Shown here piece after piece: positions 6,826 through 33,393 of a stretch of 33,393 nucleotides of DNA; within the stretch, counting starts at the first letter, position 1; each line of letters starts with the position of its first letter. This stretch comes from a virus (lineage: Duplodnaviria > Heunggongvirae > Uroviricota > Caudoviricetes): the IMG/VR virus record IMGVR_UViG_3300028833_000069; one strand, 5' to 3'. Under the pieces are notes generated by a model, which worked only from the letters and a program-made list of their open reading frames with translations, did no database searches and was not told the DNA's origin. The position numbers and the translations under genes were made by a program.

Positions 6826-8330
6826 TGTTTATCCTCCAAGTCATTGATTAAACCAGTATTATCTTCTGTATTAGACATAAGTTCTTTACAGAGTAATTTA
6901 CCAGCATAAATAAGATACTTATCATCTTTAGTTTCATCATATTTATCTCTACAGTATTCCAGTTTTTTAGTAAGAGATAAATTGAGAATTAACTCATTCT
7001 CTTCAATTTCTGCATGTTGCACAATCTCACCACCTTTTTGTTTAATTTCTTCAAGAGTAGTAGGAGTGCCTTCTGTAGAAATTACAGGAATACCTTTTTT
7101 TGTTATATCTTCAAGGTCTATATGATTTTTGTTCTTATGTAACGCTCCTTCTGGAATTACATTAGGTTCCTTACCAGTCTGTACTCCTTCAAGACTATGC
7201 TTCTTATCTTCAGCAAGTTTCTTTCTTCTAGCAATTACATAATCAGACATAGACTTTAATCTAGCACCATGCTTAGCTGCTAATATAGATGTATCAACAC
7301 CACCTGCTAAAGCTAACTGATTTGCAAGCATTACATCATTTAAAGAAGCTTGTCTAGCTTTTTGTTCAAATTTAGCATCTTCTACTAAGTTCTTGGCTTT
7401 CATTGCCATTTCAGCTTGTGCATTTCTTCTCTCATTCTTTCTCTCCTGGGCTCCTCTTTGCCAACTTCTACCAGATGATTCTTCAAAGTGACCAAGACCT
7501 GAACCATATGAGTTTGTATCAAGATTTACATGGAATCCTTCAACCTTTGAACCAAATGCTTTATCTGCAAAGTTAACTGCTTTTAAAGCAGCAGCTGCTG
7601 CCATAGCATATGGATTACCACTTGCCATAAGACCATTAGAAACAGTATCAACTCCAGCATCAATCATATTGGAAGTTTCATCCATTTTAAGGTCTTGTGT
7701 CATTAACTTATCAGCAGTACCTACAACAGAATTAACAACAGAAGCAGCTTTACCAACAACCTGACCAGCCTTTGCTGCTCTAGCAGCTCTTGCTTCAGCA
7801 GCCTTCTGTCCATCTGCATTTGCAGCATCAATTTGTTCTTGAGTTAAGTTAGCAGAAACAGCTTCATCTTGTTGTATTGAGGAATTCAAAGATTCTAACT
7901 GTGAAACATCATCAGGAGTTGCAATACCTCTATCAACTTTTAATTGAAGCTCTGTTTGCTTTAACTTATTTTGCCCAAGTCTAGCTTGTGCTTCTTGATA
8001 CTTAGTTGCTTGTAAGTCTTTAGCAGCATTATAAGCATTAGCATTAGCACTACTAGTAATTCTTCTCACATAAGCCTGACTAGGAGTATACTGAGATGAG
8101 CCAGCATAACCTGGAAACAATACATCCATAGTATTCATTAATGCACTGTTACCAGCAAACTGTGTACCAGGATACATTTGCCCAGGACTTTGCTCACCAA
8201 GTGCAGTAGTACCAGGAGGAGTTGTAACTCCTACAACCCCTCCTTGACTATCAGCAGCTTGGCTCATTGCACTAATCTAAGCATCACTAAAGCCCAACTG
8301 TAGAAGACCATTTATTTGTTCTTGTGTCAT
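6822..8330 (-). CDS. Putative cargo/ejection protein, Ala-rich and helical (502 aa with TAG=Gln)
   Basis: ATG at 8330 directly follows the upstream TAA. TAG at 8277, then the 481-aa ORF. The TGA stop overlaps the next ATG. Confidence 0.7.
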
Positions 8331-8331
8331 A

Positions 8332-11300
8332 TTAAGCAAAACTATAATCAAACAAAGTAGTGACACCTTGTATGATCGCAAGGTTTTCACCTGAATATCT
8401 TACCTTTACTTTAAGGTATTTATCTCTAAGTCTAGCTTCTATTGGAGCTGTAAAATTAACATCTCCAGCAGTAATTACCCAAGTATCTTCTGTGGGCTGT
8501 CTGAAGATTATTTCAGATTCAGAATTATCTGCAAGTACTGTCATTTCAACAATAGAGCAATTCTCACTAACTGAGAAGTAAATCTTGTTCAGACCTTTCT
8601 CAATAAATTGAGGTTCTTCTATATTGTCAAAGTAAACATAACAGTCATTATTAGAAAGTGTTTCAAAAGAGTACAGAATACCTTTTTTAAACTTACCATA
8701 TAACTTGAATGTAGTACTTGTAATACCTGTTAACTTCTTCAATTGCATAATATCTTCATCAACAGTAACTTCAGCTTGAGAAGATTCTTTTTCTCTTGCT
8801 TTAAATCTTTGTTGAGTATCATCCTTAAGTAAAGCATAGGAGAATCTAACAGGTCTTAATTCTACTCTCCACAAATCTTCTAGATACTGCATATTACCAG
8901 CAGCTCTACCATATTTCTTAATATCAACACCAAGTTGTTCTGTATGAACTCTGTTCTCATGTAACTGGGTGTCTTCTATCAGACAAGTTTCAACACAGTT
9001 GTTAAGATATTCAAAATCATTAGAACCTGTTTCTAAAGCTCTTTCTTTAATATCATTCTCAACCTGTGCTTTTTCAAATTCTGTAAATTCAACAAAGTAA
9101 GGAATCTTTGGGAATTTATAGGAAGCATCTTTACCAAATAATGTTGGGAAATCATCTTGCTTAATTAAATCTCCATAAGTACTTTCTAAAACTTGTTTAT
9201 ACAAATACTTTAGATTTTCTTCATAATTTCCTGGTAAAGTCTCAGCTTTACTATTTATCCACTCAATTACTTCTTTATATTCCCACCATTCATAAGACTC
9301 ACCAACTACTTCAAATTCAAACTTCTTAGGCTCTGCCTTATTTGAAAGAATCATTAAGTTATTGAATATCTTTTGAATCTATGGAGCTTCATTTACAATA
9401 AACTCAAAATTAAACTCATGCTGCTTACCATACCAGTTAGCAGGTTTAATCTTACCTTGATTATCATATAAACCTGCTTGACCATGTTTCCACAATTCCA
9501 TGAAGTCACTTGCAGTTCTTATTTCATAAGGTGCATGGTCTCCATCTGAAATTGGGTCAGACTCATCAGTAAGTTGAGTATAGTAATCAATTGTTTTTAA
9601 CTTATTGTTAATCTTATTGTAAATTTCAAAGTCTTCCTTAATTTCTGTAAAGTGAGGTTCACAGAGTTCTAATTGCTCTGCTTGCTTACTTGCTATAGTA
9701 ATGTAACTTCCTTTCTTCAAAGTACTATATTTGAAATATATACTGAAGAATTTCCAAGCATCATCATTACTTGAGCCTTTTGCAATGTTATTTTGTACTT
9801 CAATGGTATCACCTTCAAATACAAAATCTTTCTTTTCATACTCGCCATTCAGAACTAAATCTACATCATTTGTAGTTTTGATATAGAAGCTTAAACAAGC
9901 AATACTATCATCTGTAAGCCCCATATCTTTTAATGGCTCTGTAGAAGGTCTACTGGTACCAAGAACAATTACATACTTATAGTCAGTATCACTATAAGTA
10001 CTGTTCTCATCATCTACTTCATAGGTATATACATTGGTAAATCCAGTGTATGCTCCATCAATATTTGATTTCAGTTCTTGATAAGTACCTTCACCTTTTA
10101 TTGCATTAGGATAAACCTATAAGATTGCATTATAAGGTGTAAAGCCATCATTAAGTTTTTGATTCAAACTATCTTGAATCTTTAAGAATTTATCTCTATC
10201 AAAAGAGAAGAAAATATTATCAATATTCTGTGATAATACAGGATACCAATCATAGAAAGTAGTGAACTTTTGAGTTACAAGATTATAACACAAAGACCAC
10301 TTAATATTTCTATCATTGTTATAAAAAGTAAAGATAACATCCCTCTTGAAAGCATTATAGTGTGTAACAACATTCTTCTTTCCTAAATCTTCTTGCATGT
10401 CAAACTCTGACAAGTCTAAGTGGTCATTTAAGAATTTCTGTACTTTAAAGTCAGAAATACAAGTAAGTTCTCCATTATAAAGCCAAATCTTCTTAGCAAC
10501 TGTATCTACACCAAAAATACCAGATTCTGTCTTAATAATAGAGTCTTTCCACATAGAACCATATATGTCAGAAACAACAACAGGAGTTTCAGGTAATACA
10601 GAATTAGAGCCAATGTAAATTGGTCCACCTTCTGTAGCAGAAGTCATTGCTCTTTCATTTACTGTTAAGAAGAGGATACCATGCTCACATACACAAATAA
10701 TATTACCATTGTAATCTACAATCTTGGTAATAGAACCATAAATCTTTGGATAATCTCTATAAGCACTTTCATAGATTACTCTATAACCATTCTTAATAGA
10801 ATTATTTACAGATATTTCTGACCACCAAATTCTTGTATTATATTCTTCTTTAAAGAATGGTACATCAGGTAATTGTAAGTATTTCTTACTTGGTACTGAA
10901 ATAGCACAAGCACCATTTATAACATCAGAATCTTGTTGTGTACTATGTGCATCTAAGTTATTAGAGAATGGGAAGAAATCTCTTTTCTTACCAAAAATAA
11001 CTTCCTCTTCAGGATGATTATAATCAATGTCTCTTAATGACAAGTTGATAGAACAACAAACAGGGAATGTAATCCATGTACCAATTGGTACTGCATTAAC
11101 ATCAGCTCTGTTAATGTTAGACAAACCTCTTGTAACCCATTCTTCTTCCTTAACAGTACTGATGATAGAACCAAAGATTTTCTTTAATGTTCCACCACTA
11201 CTACTAGATTCCTAACTTTGTGGGTCAAGAGCCTTGTAGTTACTGTTTTCTTGCATATCTCCATTTATATTAACAGAGAATGCTTGAACTACTTCATTAG

Positions 11301-13698
11301 CTCTTAATTTCTCACTGTCATCTTTTTCATAGAAAGTATCTGTACCGCCTGAGTTAAATAAACTCAAGAAGTTATTAGCAGTTTGCTTTCTAGATAAAGT
11401 ATTTCTAACAATATAGTTTTCTGCCCAACACATTGGATTAACAACCTCTTGTACATTAGGTAATTCTGGGTCAGTGAAGTTTCTTTGTAATCTTGTAGTA
11501 ACATTACAGATGAAACAGTCACCACCATAGAACACATCAGTATTGTTATCAATTGGTTGTCTTGTGCTAATAGAGTAGAATGGGGATAAATCACTGAATC
11601 TTTGCAAGAATTGCAAATCATTAAAATCTTCTTTCTCAGAAGAAGGAACTTTAATGTTTAAGATTTGTCCTTGCTGGAAAGCTTCAGAGGTTAAACCAAC
11701 AAACGGAGTAAATAATCCTCTAACTTTATCAGAACTAGTTGTTAAATCTTGTGGAGCTGTTACCTTCCAGTCATGTTTAACATCCATACAAGTGTAAGCT
11801 TCTTCAGCAGTACCAGCTTTTGTTGAAAATAGTTCATCCTTAATCTTCTTGGCTGCTATATTTTCATCCATAAAGATTAAATTACTACTTGCCTTAGTGA
11901 TTTGCTCACTAACAACACCTTGAGCTACAATCAAACTAGAAGTATTATATTGTAAGTTAGCTCTAGCAACTTGCTCAAGATAGTATGTACTACCATTAAA
12001 CAATTGACCAAGAGTGCTTTTTCTTACAGCTGCTTCTGGTACAAGCATTGCTTTTGGAGAAGCCTTAATACCTGTAATAGTTTTAGGATTATCACCTAAT
12101 GTTCTACTTTGCTCTAAGAATCCTTTGCAAGACCCATAGAGACCACTCATCATTACTGGGATACCAGTCTTATCAACATCTGCTTTTCCAATTACTAAAC
12201 CTTGTGCAAGGATAGTAGGAATTCTTTTTTGTCTAACAATTCCATAGCCTTTAACATTAAAGTGATTTTTTAATATCTCAGATACTGATGCTGGAATGTT
12301 AAACTTAACACCTATAATAGTAGGCTGTAAGTTACCAACAGATACATTCAATTGATGAATATTAGCTTTAGGTAATCTTACAACACCTTTTGAATTTATA
12401 AAGTATTTCTTGTTAAAATAGAAATTATCTGGTTCAGGAATGCTTAGATTATTTACTGTAACATTTTGGTCTGATACAGAAAAACCTCCTAATTCATTTG
12501 CACCAGGATTATTATCTGGATTTGGAATAGTTTGTAAGTTGATACCTTGTATGTTAAATACAGGAGAAACTTGCCCATTTTCAAAGATATAGTAAATACC
12601 AAATCTATAGAATTCATCAGCCCAGTAACCAGTACTATAATATGTATTGTAAGTATTATAGTAAGCTCCTTTTGTAGTATCATCCAAACTTCTTTCAAAG
12701 CTATAATCTTTCTCAATAACAGAACCAATCTTACCAGATTTTATATCTACACTAGGAGTAATTCTCCAAGACAAAGATTGTAAATCATTATATCTGGTTC
12801 TATCTTGAGTTGTATTACCAAGGAACAATCTGTTTTGTGATTGGCAGATAGTTTTAGCAGTACCAATGTTAGCAAAGTCTTTTAAGAAATCTGCCTTATC
12901 TATTTCAACAATATCTTCAGAACCTGTAATAGTTATATCACAAGTTCCTTCTTTAATTGGGAATTTATAGTTAATACTATGATATGAAGTATGAGCTACT
13001 TGTGTGTTATCAGAAGTACTTCTTTCAAAATACACTTTTACAAAGTTATATCCTGAATGAATATTAGACATGTTAAACACAACAGATTTATTAGAAATCT
13101 CATCTTGCATTCCCATTCTAATATAAGGAGTTCCTATATCTCCAATAAATAATTGTACCAGATTAGATTCTTGCACAATTTCTGTTTCATTATCCTCATT
13201 ATCAAGTAATGAGAAGTAGAAGAAATAAGAACCACACTTCAATGAACCTGTTTCTAATAATTTAACAAATTCTAGTTTAGGAATACCTTCATAAGAAGGA
13301 AGTAAAGCAGATTGCTGCTCAAACTTATCTTCTTCATAAAGGTTTCTATCTTTCTCTCCTTTGTGGTCAACTATTTCATAAGTTTTACCTTCCTGGACAG
13401 AAAACCTAGAATTTATCAATTTAACTGAATTAACATCATCAGATAAAACAACATTAACACTTCCATCAAAGAAAGGTTGTATTTCCAACTCAACAGGAGT
13501 AGTCACTGGTTCATGTTGGAAATTAAGTTTATTTGTTGACATTTCAGTCAGTTTACCAGAATGTAAAATCAAGTTGTTAAACGGTGCATAGGAATCTGAC
13601 AAGTCTCCCTATAGATTCCTATTTGCCGCATATATTCTACTTTCTTCTTTATTAGAAGGGTTAAAAACAATATCTGGTTCTGTATTATATGTACTCAT
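8332..13698 (-). CDS. crAss-like tail stabilization/muzzle-type protein (1788 aa with TAG=Gln)
   Basis: Four listed ORFs plus an N-terminal piece join in one frame through TAGs at 13609, 11212, 10117 and 9379. Motifs I recall from crAss tail stabilization proteins: GYWADEFYRFGI, FYGGDCFIC, FGVDTVAKKIW, FTTFYDW and C-terminal RLRDKYLKVKVRYSG. Confidence 0.75.
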
Positions 13699-16700: not shown

Positions 16701-17777
16701 AACAGTACTGTAAGGCATATTGAAAGCTACACCATTGTAAATAACAGGATTTAACCTAATGTTACTTACTTCCTTGCCTTTGAATAGAACTCCTAACTTA
16801 CCAGATTGCATGTTAGGATAAGCAATAGCAATATTTCTTTTTATATATTCATTGACATCTGTACAAGCATTTTGATAAGCAGAAGACAAAGGAATATACC
16901 AAGTTGGTAAATCTTTTTGAATAAATCTATTACCATTCTTCTCTAACCAATAAAAGTTTGTATCTTCAAACTGTACTGTCTTTACAGAAGATGCTCCTAC
17001 AGATACTAAGTTACAATCTACTGTATATGGTCTTTTATCCCAATCTACTGTATAAACAATAAACTTACCCAGACCAGTATCATCAGCTGCACCATAAGCA
17101 GCTTCTTTCTCTGCATCAGTAGCAGGATAAGTAATTGTTATTCCACTATTAAGGTCTTTCTCACCTGTTAAAGAGTTCTTTAAATCAGTAGCAGATAAAG
17201 GAGTAATAGAACCATAACCTTGTTGTGCTGCTGTTAAATATGGTGCGCTATCTTGTACACTTAAAAAAAGGATGAATTGGTCTCCTACATTAAATACTTT
17301 TTCTTCACCAGTACCTGTCATACTTTGAAGTACAATAGGAATAGGTTTAATTCTAGTCTCATGTTTTACATAGGTATCAAAGCTATTCTTGTTAAAGTTA
17401 TTATCCAAGACATCTCTGATATGCCAATCATCTTCACTGTTATAGTTAGCTACATATTCTGCATTATTATAAGTAATAATAGGGCTTGGAATACTACCTA
17501 ACTCACACTCACCATTCTAATTAACAGAAGCAATATAGAGCACACCACCATGCTCTTTCATACCAACAGGAATAAAGCCAGGATGTAGGCCCATAATCTT
17601 GCCAGTCCTGGAATCTACAATCCTGGTATTACCCATATCATTTTGTAATGCGGTTTCATTACCATTATAAGTAATAAAGGTAGCATTAAGTGCATCAGTA
17701 TATGTGTCTTTACCAGTGTTTAAGGGGTGTAAGTCCTTTATCAATCCCCCTGAGAAAGCTTGTGTTGTATTTTCCAT
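13704..17777 (-). CDS. Large crAss-like tail protein with a muzzle-like N-terminus and a long variable region (1357 aa with TAG=Gln)
   Basis: ORFs 17517..17777, 15000..17408 and 13761..14963 join through TAGs at 17517, 15000 and 13761; TAA at 13704. The N-terminus F.GGLIKDLHP...ALNAT.ITYNGNE.ALQNDMGN...GECELGSIPSP resembles crAss tail proteins. Confidence 0.7.
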
Positions 17778-18729
17778 ATTTATTTTTGCCTACAAATTCA
17801 GCTTTAGTTGTTATCAATTTAGGATACCATACTCTAAAACCTAAATCTTTAGGAGCAGGCACCCTCCATATATATTTGACCATTTTATCATGATAAAGTT
17901 CAGATTTTACTTTAGTTAAAGTTACTGATTTAAATTCTTTTGTACCACCCTACTGAACAACTTGCTAATGTTTTGTCTAGCTACATCCAATATAGTAATA
18001 CTTATCCCAAACTCTTCTCTAAATCCTAAATAAAAATCTTTCCTTCATTCTCCACTTAAACATAGCCTGGTCAAACCATGAAAGTGGATTTATAAATAAC
18101 ATGCCAGTAAACATAAAGATGCTGTCTCTATTATCACAAGTAAAAACATCACATTTCTTATGATTTACATACCAATACATTCTAAGACCATAAGATAAAA
18201 TATTTTTAATCTCTTCTCTAGTAAATATTGTATGTTTTTTCTAAACAGCTTCTACATAATCCTCAACAGTCCTGTAATCACCAGCACCAAACTTCTTACC
18301 ACTATTAGCAGCATTTAATAGTTCATGAGCTAAAGTAGAAGTGATGTATATAGGCTTTTTATATTCCTAATAGACTGTTCTCCATTTTAAATAAACTCTA
18401 TAACCAGTGAAGTTAGTTGCAATATAATCAACTCCTTCAAAACCACCTAATTGTCTAGCTTTTTTAAAATCATCACCAGTAATAGGATGAACTTCAATCC
18501 ATGCTCTAGTACCAGGAGGAAGTTTAAAAGCTATGTTTTCTCTAACAATATCAGGTAATAAGATTCTAAAGAAATCTCTTAATATAAGAGCTAAAAGATT
18601 TTGAAATGACATTCCATATACTTCTTCTGCTCTTTCTTTAGATATTCTAATTTTTTTAACTTTGAAATTGGTATATAAGTCATCAAAGTGGACACTGTAG
18701 CTTACTGGATAAACAGGTCCTTCATACAT
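17710..18729 (-). CDS. Basic protein, possibly HU/IHF-like (339 aa, 6 TAGs)
   Basis: The 120-aa ORF continues through six in-frame TAGs (first at 18367) to TAA at 17710, filling a 600-bp gap in the ORF track. The ORF is well supported. The HU/IHF call rests on position and weak helical pattern only. Confidence 0.6.
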
Positions 18730-29818: not shown

Positions 29819-31120
29819 TTAGTTGTAATAATAATATTTTTGTTTATTTAATATTGTCGTTGCAAAAGGAAGATATTCATTGTCCCTAACAAGTCTATCT
29901 TTCAATACAGAAGAAGCTGTAATAAATACATAGTCTTCAGATTCTATATCATTATCTAAATAAGCAAATCTTACTACTATTTTTTCTTCTCCTTTAATAG
30001 GCACTACCTCAAACTGTTTAATAGCAATTAACTTACCAATAACATCTGTTATACTAACTCTTTTATCAGTTGGTACACCTAACCAGTTATCATAGCCCTT
30101 CTTTTCAGCTAAAGATTGATACTACATTTTCTTAAATAAATTTATGTTTCTATCACCTTTTATAGATAGCCAAAAACCAATAGACTTGGTTAATTGTAGC
30201 CACCCTAGGTAACTAGCCATCTGTTGTTTAAATGTATGATCGTCAACACCTCTTTTATTAAGTCTAGCTGCTTTTCTTCTTATTTTTATATAAAGGTGTC
30301 TTTGTAATGTCATTTTATTTTCTGTAAATTTACAGCCAACCATTTTAACACCACACTTTACTGGAGCAATTCTAACATTATTTTTAATAGTTAATTTATA
30401 CTCATCAGCAAATTGTTGAAGTTCTTTAAGAAGTTTCTAAGCTTCTTCTTTAGTTGGAATAAACATTATTATATCATCCATATATCTAAAGTAAAACTTA
30501 ATTCCAAGAACTTCTTTAAAATAGTGGTCACATATAGATAAAAATAAATTAGCAAGATACTAGCTACTACCAACACCAATTGCTAAACCTTTTTTGTTTC
30601 TATCTATTAACTTTTCAAAATATCTTATTATTCTTTTATCTTTAAATACTTTTCTGACAATTTCTTTCATCTTTTCATGGTCAATAGACTCATAAAAATG
30701 TCTGAAATCTGTCTTTAAGTAATACCAATTTTGATGTTTACTTACTACTACAGAAAGTGACTTAGCTAATCTGTGTAAACCTCTATATTGTAAACTACCA
30801 TAAGAACAATAAGGTATTCTATCTAATAATTCCCATTTTACTATTCTTAGTACAGCATGGTCAATTATTTTATCTGGATAAAGCTTTGGGGCATGTATAT
30901 CTCTTTCTTTAGGTTCATAAACTTTAAATGAAAACAAAGGACTTAAAGTATATGTTTCATTTTTTAAGTTTGTATATATTTCTTCAATTATTTCATCATG
31001 CTTTTCCCAAGCAGCTTTAACAGCTTTCTTGTTTTTACAAACTCTCAATGCTTCTTTAAAAGCATTTTCCAAGTTCATTTTGTCATAAACTTGTTCCCAA
31101 GTAACTTTGGACTTCTTCAT
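29819..31120 (-). CDS. DGR reverse transcriptase with a fused ~100-aa C-terminal domain (433 aa with TAG=Gln)
   Basis: RT motifs FKVYEPKERDI, PDKIIDHA, YYLKTDFRHFYESIDH, GLAIGVGSS[Q]YLANLFL (DGR-type SQ), YFRYMDD (YMDD at 30473-30484) and SYLGW. TAGs at 30560, 30437 and 30122; the first TAA is at 29819. Confidence 0.9.
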
Positions 31121-31149
31121 ATCCAGTCCTGTTAACAAGTCATCTTCAG

Positions 31150-31347
31150 CATTAGCTTACCAACACCTTGTCGTTATACTGTGTTTTGTTGTTAAACAAC
31201 AAGGTCTAGCCAGGTTTGGTGCTATGTACACCTTAATTATAAGAACTGTTTGGAGGCAAACCCATTCACATTGTTAGCATTGTTAACATTGTTAGCATTG
31301 TTAGCACGCCCCAAGCCATAGAGGGAAAGCCTGACCTGGCTAGACCT
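31150..31347 (-). ncRNA. DGR template RNA (TR plus structured flanks/spacer)
   Basis: Intergenic region upstream of the RT. Holds the AAY-rich TR, a perfect 14-bp inverted repeat (31202-31215 / 31334-31347) and an 11-bp stem (31165-31175 / 31195-31205). Boundaries are approximate. Confidence 0.7.
31251..31330 (-). repeat. DGR template repeat (TR)
   Basis: Minus strand ...CGT GCT AAC AAT GCT AAC AAT GTT AAC AAT GCT AAC AAT GTG AAT GGG TTT GCC TCC A. Positions 31251-31290 align without gaps to 33354-33393 with 10 mismatches, all at TR adenines. The 5' boundary is uncertain because the VR is cut by the window edge. Confidence 0.92.
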
Positions 31348-31355
31348 ATATATAT

Positions 31356-31622
31356 TTATTTTCTAATTATCTTAAAATAGGTATTTGTTATTGAACCAGC
31401 ACCACCTTCACTACCAGGAGTACCTGTAGTTGGATAGGGAGCTTCTTTCAATGAGATACCTCTAACATTTATATTGGAAACAGCTTCTGGCCCATTTAAG
31501 AATTGGAAGTAACTCAGAGATAAACCCCTCAACACTTCCTCAATAGGACTGTGAGCTTCTTCACCTTCAAGAAACTAAAAGTAACTTAAAGATATTCCTC
31601 TCAAGAGTACATCACTATCCAT
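31356..31622 (-). CDS. Small hypothetical protein with an internal repeat (88 aa with TAG=Gln)
   Basis: MDSDVLLRGISLSYF[TAG]FLEGEEAHSPIEEVLRGLSLSYFQFLNGPEAVSNINVRGISLKEAPYPTTGTPGSEGGAGSITNTYFKIIRK-TAA. The ATG is 1 nt after the target gene stop. Not in the ORF track. Confidence 0.75.
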
Positions 31623-31623
31623 A

Positions 31624-33393
31624 TTATACACTCTTTGTTACAAATACTGCAAATTGCATATAAGGTTGATCTAATACAGATTTAGTTCCTGCCATAATTG
31701 AGCCATTAGCTTGATAAGAATATGGATTACCAGAACCAAGCAACTGATCATTGATTGTACTTCTGTTAATTACTCCATTACTCTTTAAAGCAAAATATTC
31801 TCCTCTAGTAGCAGCTGGAACCCAAGGAGCAGTTGGAACCAATCTTTCGCTATCTGCTGCTGCAATTTCTTCATCTGTTCTATCATCAAACATCATTGCA
31901 ATTTGATATGCATTGTCTTCTGGACAAATAAATGTTGCAGTTGTTTCAGCTACAAAAGATTCTCCTGGTACAATAGTTCTGCCATTAAAACTGATGCTTT
32001 TACCATTTTCAGGATTATAATAAGTTATACCTTGAATAAGAGTATTACCAGAAGTAACTGTTCTATATACACTTGATCTACATCTGCAATATACAACATT
32101 CTGTACATTTGGATCATTGATAGCATATGCATAAATAGTTCCATCTGCTCCAGCACTCATGTTATACTTATTATATTCTCCTGTTACTGCATCTGCTGTT
32201 ACTACAAGCATATCATCTGCTTTATATGCTACATAATCAGCATAAGTAGGATGCCAATACATAACTCTATCATCTACAGATGCTTGATCATCTGCTCTTA
32301 ACAAATACTTACCAGCTGGAAGAGAATCTCCAGGACCATATTTAGCAACTACTTGATTGCCATTACCATCATCTTTAGTGCCAATGTAGTCATCAGTGTT
32401 CATTGTTATACCTTTGTCAGTAATATGGTCAGATTGTAAAGCATAGACTCCATTATACTGAAGTTCAGCAGGATTCATCTTCATTATCTTGGATAAGATT
32501 GCACCAGTTGTTGCAACAGAACCTTCATTGATTTTAATGCTTCCATTTTCAATCTTTAAGCATCCTGTAAGTGTTCTATTATCAAAACACCAAGTATGTC
32601 CATCTGAAGCTGTTCTAATGTTCTCTGTTTCTCCATATACTTGGATATGTGCAGCAGGAGGTAATGCCCCATAATAAATATTGTTTTCAGGGAATATACA
32701 AGCTGCTGTTGGTTTTAATGTAAAATCTAAACCATCTGGATCATTAAAGATGTCATATGCACTTTGATCAGGGAATATACAAGCATTACTACCAGTACCA
32801 AATTGCATTGAATTAGATTCTGTAATTAAACTTAATCTAACCATTGCTGGTATAACATGAGAAATGTTTGGAGTAACACCTTCATCAACTACTACTGTAA
32901 TTGTTATGGTATCATTCTCATCATCATATGCATATCCTTCTGTATCTCCTGTTTCCCAGAGTACTTGCCAGTTTTTAGTTGTATTATTAGCACCACCTGC
33001 TCTGTAAACATAATATCTACAGTCATTAGCAAAACAACAGTTTATAAAATAATCTCTACTATTTTCAGAACCTGTTGCTACAAAGAAATCCCACTTCGAG
33101 TATACACATCTGTTACCATAGTGTCTACCAGTTACAGCGCCAGTACCTCTTCTACCTACATTTTGTCCAGTAACACCTTGTCTATCTATTCTTGTATTGT
33201 AATATGTACAATAAGTTGAAGCAGATCCAGAATAATTACTCAGAATAACAGGACAACCTGTGTTTCTAATAATATCTGAATAGATTATTCTAGTGGGGGA
33301 AGATCCCCCACATCCCCCTCTCCATAGTTTACTGTGGTGTACCAGGACTGGACTGGAGGCAAACCCAGACACACTGCCAGCACCGCCAACATA
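31624..33393 (-). CDS. DGR target protein (putative tail spike/adhesin), 5' end outside the window
   Basis: The frame is open for 590 codons from the window edge to TAA at 31624. The VR is in frame at the window edge (YVGGAGSVSGFAS). Confidence 0.85.
   Translation of the reverse strand, partial: YVGGAGSVSGFASSPVLVHHSKLWRGGCGGSSPTRIIYSDIIRNTGCPVILSNYSGSASTYCTYYNTRIDRQGVTGQNVGRRGTGAVTGRHYGNRCVYSKWDFFVATGSENSRDYFINCCFANDCRYYVYRAGGANNTTKNWQVLWETGDTEGYAYDDENDTITITVVVDEGVTPNISHVIPAMVRLSLITESNSMQFGTGSNACIFPDQSAYDIFNDPDGLDFTLKPTAACIFPENNIYYGALPPAAHIQVYGETENIRTASDGHTWCFDNRTLTGCLKIENGSIKINEGSVATTGAILSKIMKMNPAELQYNGVYALQSDHITDKGITMNTDDYIGTKDDGNGNQVVAKYGPGDSLPAGKYLLRADDQASVDDRVMYWHPTYADYVAYKADDMLVVTADAVTGEYNKYNMSAGADGTIYAYAINDPNVQNVVYCRCRSSVYRTVTSGNTLIQGITYYNPENGKSISFNGRTIVPGESFVAETTATFICPEDNAYQIAMMFDDRTDEEIAAADSERLVPTAPWVPAATRGEYFALKSNGVINRSTINDQLLGSGNPYSYQANGSIMAGTKSVLDQPYMQFAVFVTKSV
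33293..33311. promoter_or_regulatory. GC-rich hairpin/cruciform downstream of the VR (candidate DGR target-recognition element)
   Basis: GTGGGGGA-AGA-TCCCCCAC, a perfect 8-bp stem 42 nt past the VR end in an otherwise AT-rich gene. Confidence 0.7.
33354..33393 (-). repeat. DGR variable repeat (VR), truncated by the window edge
   Basis: TAT GTT GGC GGT GCT GGC AGT GTG TCT GGG TTT GCC TCC A versus TR AAT GTT AAC AAT GCT AAC AAT GTG AAT GGG TTT GCC TCC A. Confidence 0.92.

Follow-up and report, generated by a model that had tools for sequence, protein, structure and literature searches.

Organization of the locus

We analysed a 33,393-nucleotide stretch of viral DNA (the window) from the record IMGVR_UViG_3300028833_000069; unless stated otherwise, coordinates are window positions. 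Every long open reading frame (ORF) of the window lies on the minus strand. The parts of a diversity-generating retroelement (DGR) follow one another along this strand in the order target gene, 91-aa ORF, template repeat (TR) and reverse transcriptase (RT). For comparison we used the related contig L001 (IMGVR_UViG_3300024345_000685), which holds the whole cassette (target 7351..9483, 710 aa; variable repeat (VR) 7709-7785; 89-aa ORF 9486-9755; TR 9783-9859; RT 10010..11311) and whose RT is 72–73% identical to that of the window. The features of the window cassette are as follows.

31624..33393, minus strand: target gene, cut by the window end so that 589 C-terminal codons of an approximately 721-aa protein are visible; no TAG
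33354..33393, minus strand: 3′ portion of the VR, which runs off the window end; 40 nt align with the TR
31356..31631, minus strand: 91-aa ORF between target and TR, the usual place of Avd; one TAG
31251..31327, minus strand: TR, rich in AAC and AAT, a direct repeat with the VR; length put at about 77 nt from the L001 counterpart, with a putative 5′ end
29819..31138, minus strand: DGR RT, a single ORF only when TAG is read as Gln; 439 codons from a TTG, 433 from the ATG at 31120
30560..30562, minus strand: first TAG of the RT, codon 193; encodes the Gln of GxxxSQ, 26 codons ahead of YMDD
30437..30439, minus strand: second TAG, codon 234; a variable site after YMDD, occupied by Q, K, N or H in relatives and encoded by AAG in L001
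30122..30124, minus strand: third TAG, codon 339; junction of the thumb and C-terminal extension, mostly E but also Q or P in relatives and encoded by CCC in L001

The window covers late, structural genes of a gut phage, and the gene counts below refer to this block alone, 33 kb of the genome. It includes a match to a major head protein (PHROG 11589), a 1,788-aa gene with matches to virion structural proteins and a tail-fibre repeat; a weak portal match lies upstream in L001.

Genetic code of the phage

Translation with table 11 breaks many ORFs of the window, and reading TAG as glutamine joins the pieces. Frames of 796, 335, 181 and 340 codons become one frame of about 1,788–1,799 codons when TAG is a sense codon, and a second fused frame reaches 1,368 codons. 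Long-ORF coverage of the window rises from 0.815 to 0.952 with TAG as sense; treating TGA as sense brings no gain. There are 41 in-frame TAG codons, spread over 15 of the 22 window genes, and the 21 visible terminators are TAA (19) or TGA (2), never TAG. Among the 15 codon pairs with a TAG in an alignment of the window with L001, TAG stands opposite CAA or CAG in seven and opposite TAG in one. This pairing, together with the position of RT codon 193 on a near-invariant glutamine, assigns TAG to glutamine, and the codon evidence indicates that the phage uses genetic code 15. Dependence on TAG is common to about two thirds of the window genes.

The TAG load is uneven. The major capsid gene and four other complete genes have no TAG, and two tail-fibre genes neighbouring the cassette have 5 in 507 and 4 in 436 codons. 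The strongest bias in the window belongs to a 339-aa gene at 17710-18729 (minus strand), in which 6 of 11 Gln codons are TAG (Poisson P = 0.002). It matched no family; by analogy with the genes discussed by Borges et al., it may be lysis-related or tail-tube-like.

Neither the window nor L001 yielded a suppressor tRNA(CUA) with ARAGORN or Rfam, no Rfam family matched in either, and neither a release factor nor GlnRS was found within the 33-kb window. ARAGORN reported a tRNA-Leu(TAA) at 7531-7618 (minus strand), which is probably a false positive: it lies inside a 522-aa ORF and no Rfam tRNA reaches the gathering threshold there. The absence of a tRNA says little, because only about one third of the genome is visible, given a size of at least roughly 100 kb as judged from relatives.

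The reverse transcriptase and its in-frame TAG codons

The RT matches Pfam RVT_1 (7.5e-16) and PHROG 1423 'reverse transcriptase' (7e-79). It has the motifs of a DGR-type enzyme, IGVGSS-Q(TAG) at residues 187–193 and YMDD at residues 219–222, followed by a C-terminal extension of about 100 aa that is common to its family. RT relatives begin at a position matching the ATG at 31120. Under table 11 the gene falls into three pieces (30560..31138, 30122..30343 and 29819..30004), the first of which is 192 aa long from the TTG or 186 aa from the ATG and lacks the active site. A preliminary description of this DNA had counted three TAGs in the RT and had predicted a 186-aa product without the catalytic motif under the host code. 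The three codons were located at 193, 234 and 339, with the interval 30122-30562 running from the first to the last of them, and table 11 translation from ATG 31120 gives the predicted fragment. Standard-code gene calling therefore hides the DGR.

In an alignment of 21 sequences (the window RT and 20 relatives), the column of codon 193 is at least 90% Gln. It directly follows the invariant I187-G188 and S192 and lies upstream of R218-Y-M-D221-D222, and the corresponding codon in L001 is CAA. The earlier assignment of the first TAG to the Gln of GxxxSQ upstream of YMDD is thereby confirmed, and a TAG on this near-invariant glutamine provides internal proof that the window phage reads TAG as Gln. 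Every invariant column of the same alignment is retained in the window RT.

Template repeat, variable repeat and target

The 40 visible nucleotides of the VR differ from the TR at ten positions, all ten of which are adenines in the TR; in L001, where both repeats are complete at 77 nt, 14 of 14 mismatches fall at TR adenines. The window VR lies in frame inside the target ORF. From the full-length L001 cassette, the VR corresponds to about residues 121–141 of a target of about 710–721 aa.

The visible part of the target has no TAG in 589 sense codons, as the preliminary description had reported for its visible portion, and full-length relatives are also free of TAG (P0075, 95% identical and 721 aa long, and the 710-aa target of L001). 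The family spans about 640–720 aa, and its N terminus resembles a beta-helix cap (GSDxxGDGTxxxPY) placed before the hypervariable stretch. An AlphaFold2 model of the target was of moderate confidence (pLDDT 65). A Foldseek search of the PDB with this model returned no match at E ≤ 0.001, and the top weak matches were beta-helix tailspikes and glycosidases. The target is probably a beta-helix protein, as far as the model can be relied on.

A perfect, GC-rich 7-bp hairpin, TGGGGGA-TCT-TCCCCCA, occurs at 33294-33310 (minus strand), beginning 44 nt downstream of the VR and in the coding frame. It is translated within the peptide WRGGCGGSSP, which L001 keeps at the protein level, and it is a candidate homing hairpin.

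The 91-aa ORF is 65% identical to its 89-aa counterpart in L001, with a dN/dS of 0.16. It holds the peptide LRGxSLxYFQ[FY]L twice; one copy encodes the repeat glutamine by TAG and its partner by CAA or CAG, and which copy has the TAG differs between the window and L001. The ORF has no Pfam or PHROG match, and neither it nor its neighbours gave an Avd-like match in Pfam or PHROGs, Avd being the four-helix-bundle accessory protein. Because many phage DGRs do without Avd, its absence does not exclude membership of this class of element. The 91-aa ORF may be a new DGR accessory protein.

Signs that the element is active

The RT has a dN/dS of 0.17 relative to L001 over 433 codons, at a dS of about 1.1, and the target has a dN/dS of 0.18 in the same comparison. 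As far as can be judged from sequence, the RT is intact and under purifying selection. Differences between near-identical strains are concentrated in the VR: of the 15 residues that distinguish the L001 target from the 98%-identical P0074, 11 lie at positions 121–141, and comparison of the window target with P0075 gives 29 differences, 4 of which fall in the visible VR (residues 136–141). From these patterns, the DGR looks active.

The window ends inside the VR (33354-33393). Variable repeats of DGRs are known to break assemblies (Benler et al.), and the contig probably broke at this hypervariable repeat, which would be indirect, circumstantial evidence of VR heterogeneity in the sample.

The RT could also be a decaying pseudogene, with the TAGs as nonsense mutations and the DGR as a fossil. 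Its three fragments under the standard code would fit such a state, and in a distant lineage the RT of contig L042 may be broken, with TGA in place of a conserved Trp codon. Against decay stand the low dN/dS, the retention of all invariant columns, the identity of the three TAGs in the 97%-identical strain L081, the use of TAG as a sense codon in 14 other window genes, the restriction of TR/VR differences to adenines and the VR-focused differences between near-identical strains. We consider a pseudogene extremely improbable and, within the limits of sequence analysis, reject it on the strength of the dN/dS, the invariant columns, L081 and the adenine-only mismatches. Among the states that would speak against its proposal, the preliminary description had named a decaying RT and a lack of VR diversity. 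We found instead a conserved RT whose TAGs recur in L081, and VR diversity among near-identical strains.

Relatives and host

L081, whose contig starts inside the target, came from a metagenome scan that returned one further, distant RT and nothing more. The nearest sequences by protein are P0001, with a 91% identical RT, and P0075, with a 95% identical target. No longer contig of the window phage emerged from IMG/VR scans with the RT and with the capsid protein, a search with an exact 41-nt pattern found nothing, and megablast of 13.4 kb against GenBank phages gave no match. The capsid protein is 47% identical to those of two unannotated human-gut phage genomes of 117–122 kb and 23% identical to that of the crAss-like uncultured phage cr4_1; it has no close relative among GenBank phages. 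MT835470.1, the closest complete genome by capsid (47%, 117 kb), uses the standard code, so recoding would have arisen in the clade after the two lineages split. Having no tRNA as well, this genome is uninformative as a clue to the suppressor of the window phage.

In-frame stops are rare among RT relatives. The preliminary description had proposed comparing TAG use between RTs of recoded and non-recoded origin, and we found that all 80 relatives on bacterial or metagenome-assembled genome (MAG) contigs are stop-free, as are 77 of 80 on IMG/VR contigs; the three with an in-frame stop are L001, L040 and L042. RTs of the family with the C-terminal extension, 35–42% identical to the window RT, sit with the same target family on Bacteroidales MAG contigs, carried by Paludibacteraceae, Caccoplasma, Sangeribacter and others on contigs of up to 1.39 Mb. 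The lack of in-frame stops on these contigs indicates that these relatives use the standard code. Stop-free relatives in standard-code contexts in turn imply that the cassette family predates recoding and that the TAGs were gained inside recoded lineages. In the sense of codon amelioration, then, the suggestion that the DGR is adapted to the code of this phage holds. The sequence relationships suggest a Bacteroidales host.

The RT of L040 is 27% identical to that of the window and belongs to an independent recoded lineage, in which the VR lies at the C terminus of a 604-aa target. L040 (10001-11296) and L042 (10016-11311) carry near-identical phage RTs that differ as TGG and TAG at one site and have one further TAG in common. 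The TGA of L042 falls on the conserved Trp of a GW motif and splits the RT; either this RT is broken or the codon is a sign of mixed suppression. A recoding screen of all loci by gain in long-ORF coverage was too noisy at GC-rich loci to be used, and the 'TGA gains' of L058 and L004 look spurious.

A further explanation is that the host, or the system as a whole, decodes TAG as Gln constitutively, so that there would be no temporal gate and the TAGs would carry no regulatory meaning. No suppressor tRNA or code-change gene lies within the 33 kb, as this explanation would have it, and MT835470 also has no tRNA, although its code is standard. However, the closest relatives of the RT and target sit on stop-free Bacteroidales MAG contigs, which points to the standard code, and published work finds the standard code in hosts infected by TAG-recoded gut phages (PMC12386605; bioRxiv 10.1101/2021.08.26.457843). 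We regard constitutive decoding as highly improbable.

TAG load, placement and turnover

The preliminary description had proposed that hypermutation is gated by the genetic code, such that diversification can run only while recoding is active. One part of this proposal stands: a full RT requires decoding of TAG as Gln. The catalytically complete enzyme would not be made otherwise, and the cassette is accordingly predicted to fail in a standard-code cell, as had been suggested. The part that would make this a gate specific to the DGR is unsupported: 15 of 22 window genes need TAG likewise, TAG sites in the RT change from one relative to the next, chance alone would be expected to place a TAG upstream of the active site, and we found no suppressor tRNA in the window.

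The four TAGs of the L001 RT fall at codons 31, 43, 49 and 414, and none of the seven sites is common to the two RTs. With TAGs placed randomly among Gln codons, one or more would precede YxDD with a probability of 0.64 for the window, 0.96 for L001 and 0.85 for L040. We reject a position-specific gate at the SQ codon, because L001 has CAA there.

Within the window, the RT has three TAGs against 1.67 expected (Poisson P≥3 = 0.23), and TAG makes up 3 of its 15 Gln codons compared with 8% overall (Fisher p = 0.11). For the target, 2.24 TAGs are expected and none occurs (P = 0.11). The same direction recurs in each recoded lineage: TAG accounts for 3/15, 4/23 and 2/12 Gln codons in the RTs of the window, L001 and L040, and for 0/17, 0/27 and 0/26 in the corresponding targets. 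Pooled over these three lineages, two of which are related, TAG is used in 9 of 50 RT Gln codons and in 52 of 824 elsewhere (p = 0.0055), and in 0 of 70 target Gln codons and 61 of 804 elsewhere (p = 0.0051), both p-values being uncorrected for about 20 gene families. This asymmetry is suggestive, a lead and not a result, and the pooled bias hints at gene-specific selection over pure drift.

Such selection could take the form of a throttle, in which TAGs are kept in the RT (and the 91-aa ORF) and kept out of the target, with selection acting on the presence or number of TAGs at any position. If TAG is decoded inefficiently, the mutagenic RT would appear late and be scarce relative to the co-transcribed tail genes, and the tail target would be made freely. 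The TAG-rich RT and TAG-free target of all three recoded lineages fit this idea, as does the fact that the RT still has TAGs although all their positions have changed at a dS of about 1.1; Borges et al. reason in the same way about lysis genes and an intron homing endonuclease. However, the pooled values carry no correction for the number of families, the RT alone is not significant in the window (p = 0.11 to 0.23), the neighbouring tail-fibre genes are equally TAG-rich (5/507 and 4/436), so that the signal may be regional, further large genes including the major capsid protein are TAG-free, and Lou et al. describe DGR targets that are themselves recoded. On balance we think a selected throttle unlikely.

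Interpretation

The reading that we judge to be very probably correct is that the three TAGs of the RT are ordinary glutamine codons that arose by drift after the code change, and that TAG dependence is a by-product and not a device specific to the DGR. The lineage would have switched to code 15, and Gln codons of the RT, which lies within the late structural block, would have drifted to TAG afterwards. With TAGs in its gene, full-length, competent RT would be made only where TAG is decoded, presumably during infection, in cells where a suppressor tRNA of the phage is expressed; where the suppressor originates and when expression takes place are the conjectural parts of this scheme. Mutagenic retrohoming would proceed from TR RNA through an adenine-mutagenised cDNA to replacement of the VR, and, since it needs the full RT, would be confined to the TAG-decoding state.

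The locus supports the view that DGRs keep their activity when the genetic code changes. Both recoded DGR RTs and the late-gene gating model have already been published. Code-gated hypermutation derives from that model and fits most window genes equally well, and it would matter only if RT genes proved, in a broad survey, to be specifically TAG-biased. The contrast between TAG-rich RTs and TAG-free targets over three lineages is weak, and is the sole lead worth a large-scale test. If true, the throttle would be a codon-level brake on hypermutation that recurs in independent lineages.

Comparison with known systems

The DGR of Bordetella phage BPP-1, whose parts are Mtd, Avd, TR and Brt, uses the standard code and has its VR in a C-terminal lectin fold. 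The window cassette resembles it in the order of target with VR, accessory ORF, TR and RT, in the adenine-specific differences between TR and VR, in the GC-rich hairpin downstream of the VR and in the SQ motif of the RT. It differs in its use of code 15, in a VR near the N terminus of a probably beta-helix target, in an unrelated 91-aa ORF in place of Avd and in an RT with a C-terminal extension of about 100 aa.

The closest published parallels are recoded phages. Three TAG-recoded phages persisting in the infant gut have DGR RTs with multiple in-frame TAGs, and their VRs mutated over three years (Lou et al., bioRxiv 10.1101/2023.08.07.552389), which indicates that the recoded RT is active there. 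These, like the window phage, are code 15 gut phages in which a multi-TAG DGR RT adjoins a tail-protein target. Their target, however, is described as recoded, a tail protein whose VR lies close to the 3′ end, whereas the window target is free of TAG and has its VR at about residues 121–141 of 721. Lou et al. make no claim of gating (bioRxiv 10.1101/2023.08.07.552389). [quoted passage not shown] These elements share GxxxSQ RTs and, in most cassettes, the lack of Avd with the window element, but in their case the target is a tail-fibre protein bearing a C-type lectin domain at its C terminus (PMC12386605), and the window phage is only distantly crAss-like.

Borges et al. proposed that recoded stops hold back the translation of structural and lysis genes until the code change acts, and extended this late-gene argument to an intron homing endonuclease (bioRxiv 10.1101/2021.08.26.457843); DGRs and reverse transcriptases receive no mention in that paper. 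The RT gating idea is this late-gene model applied to a DGR RT. We found no paper that states the corollary for DGRs explicitly; it follows directly from Lou et al. and Borges et al. taken together. The statistics of Borges et al. span many genomes, whereas our pooled RT test covers three lineages. The locus itself is unusual for placing its VR close to the N terminus of a target that is probably a beta-helix protein, and for an Avd-less cassette with a conserved 91-aa ORF.
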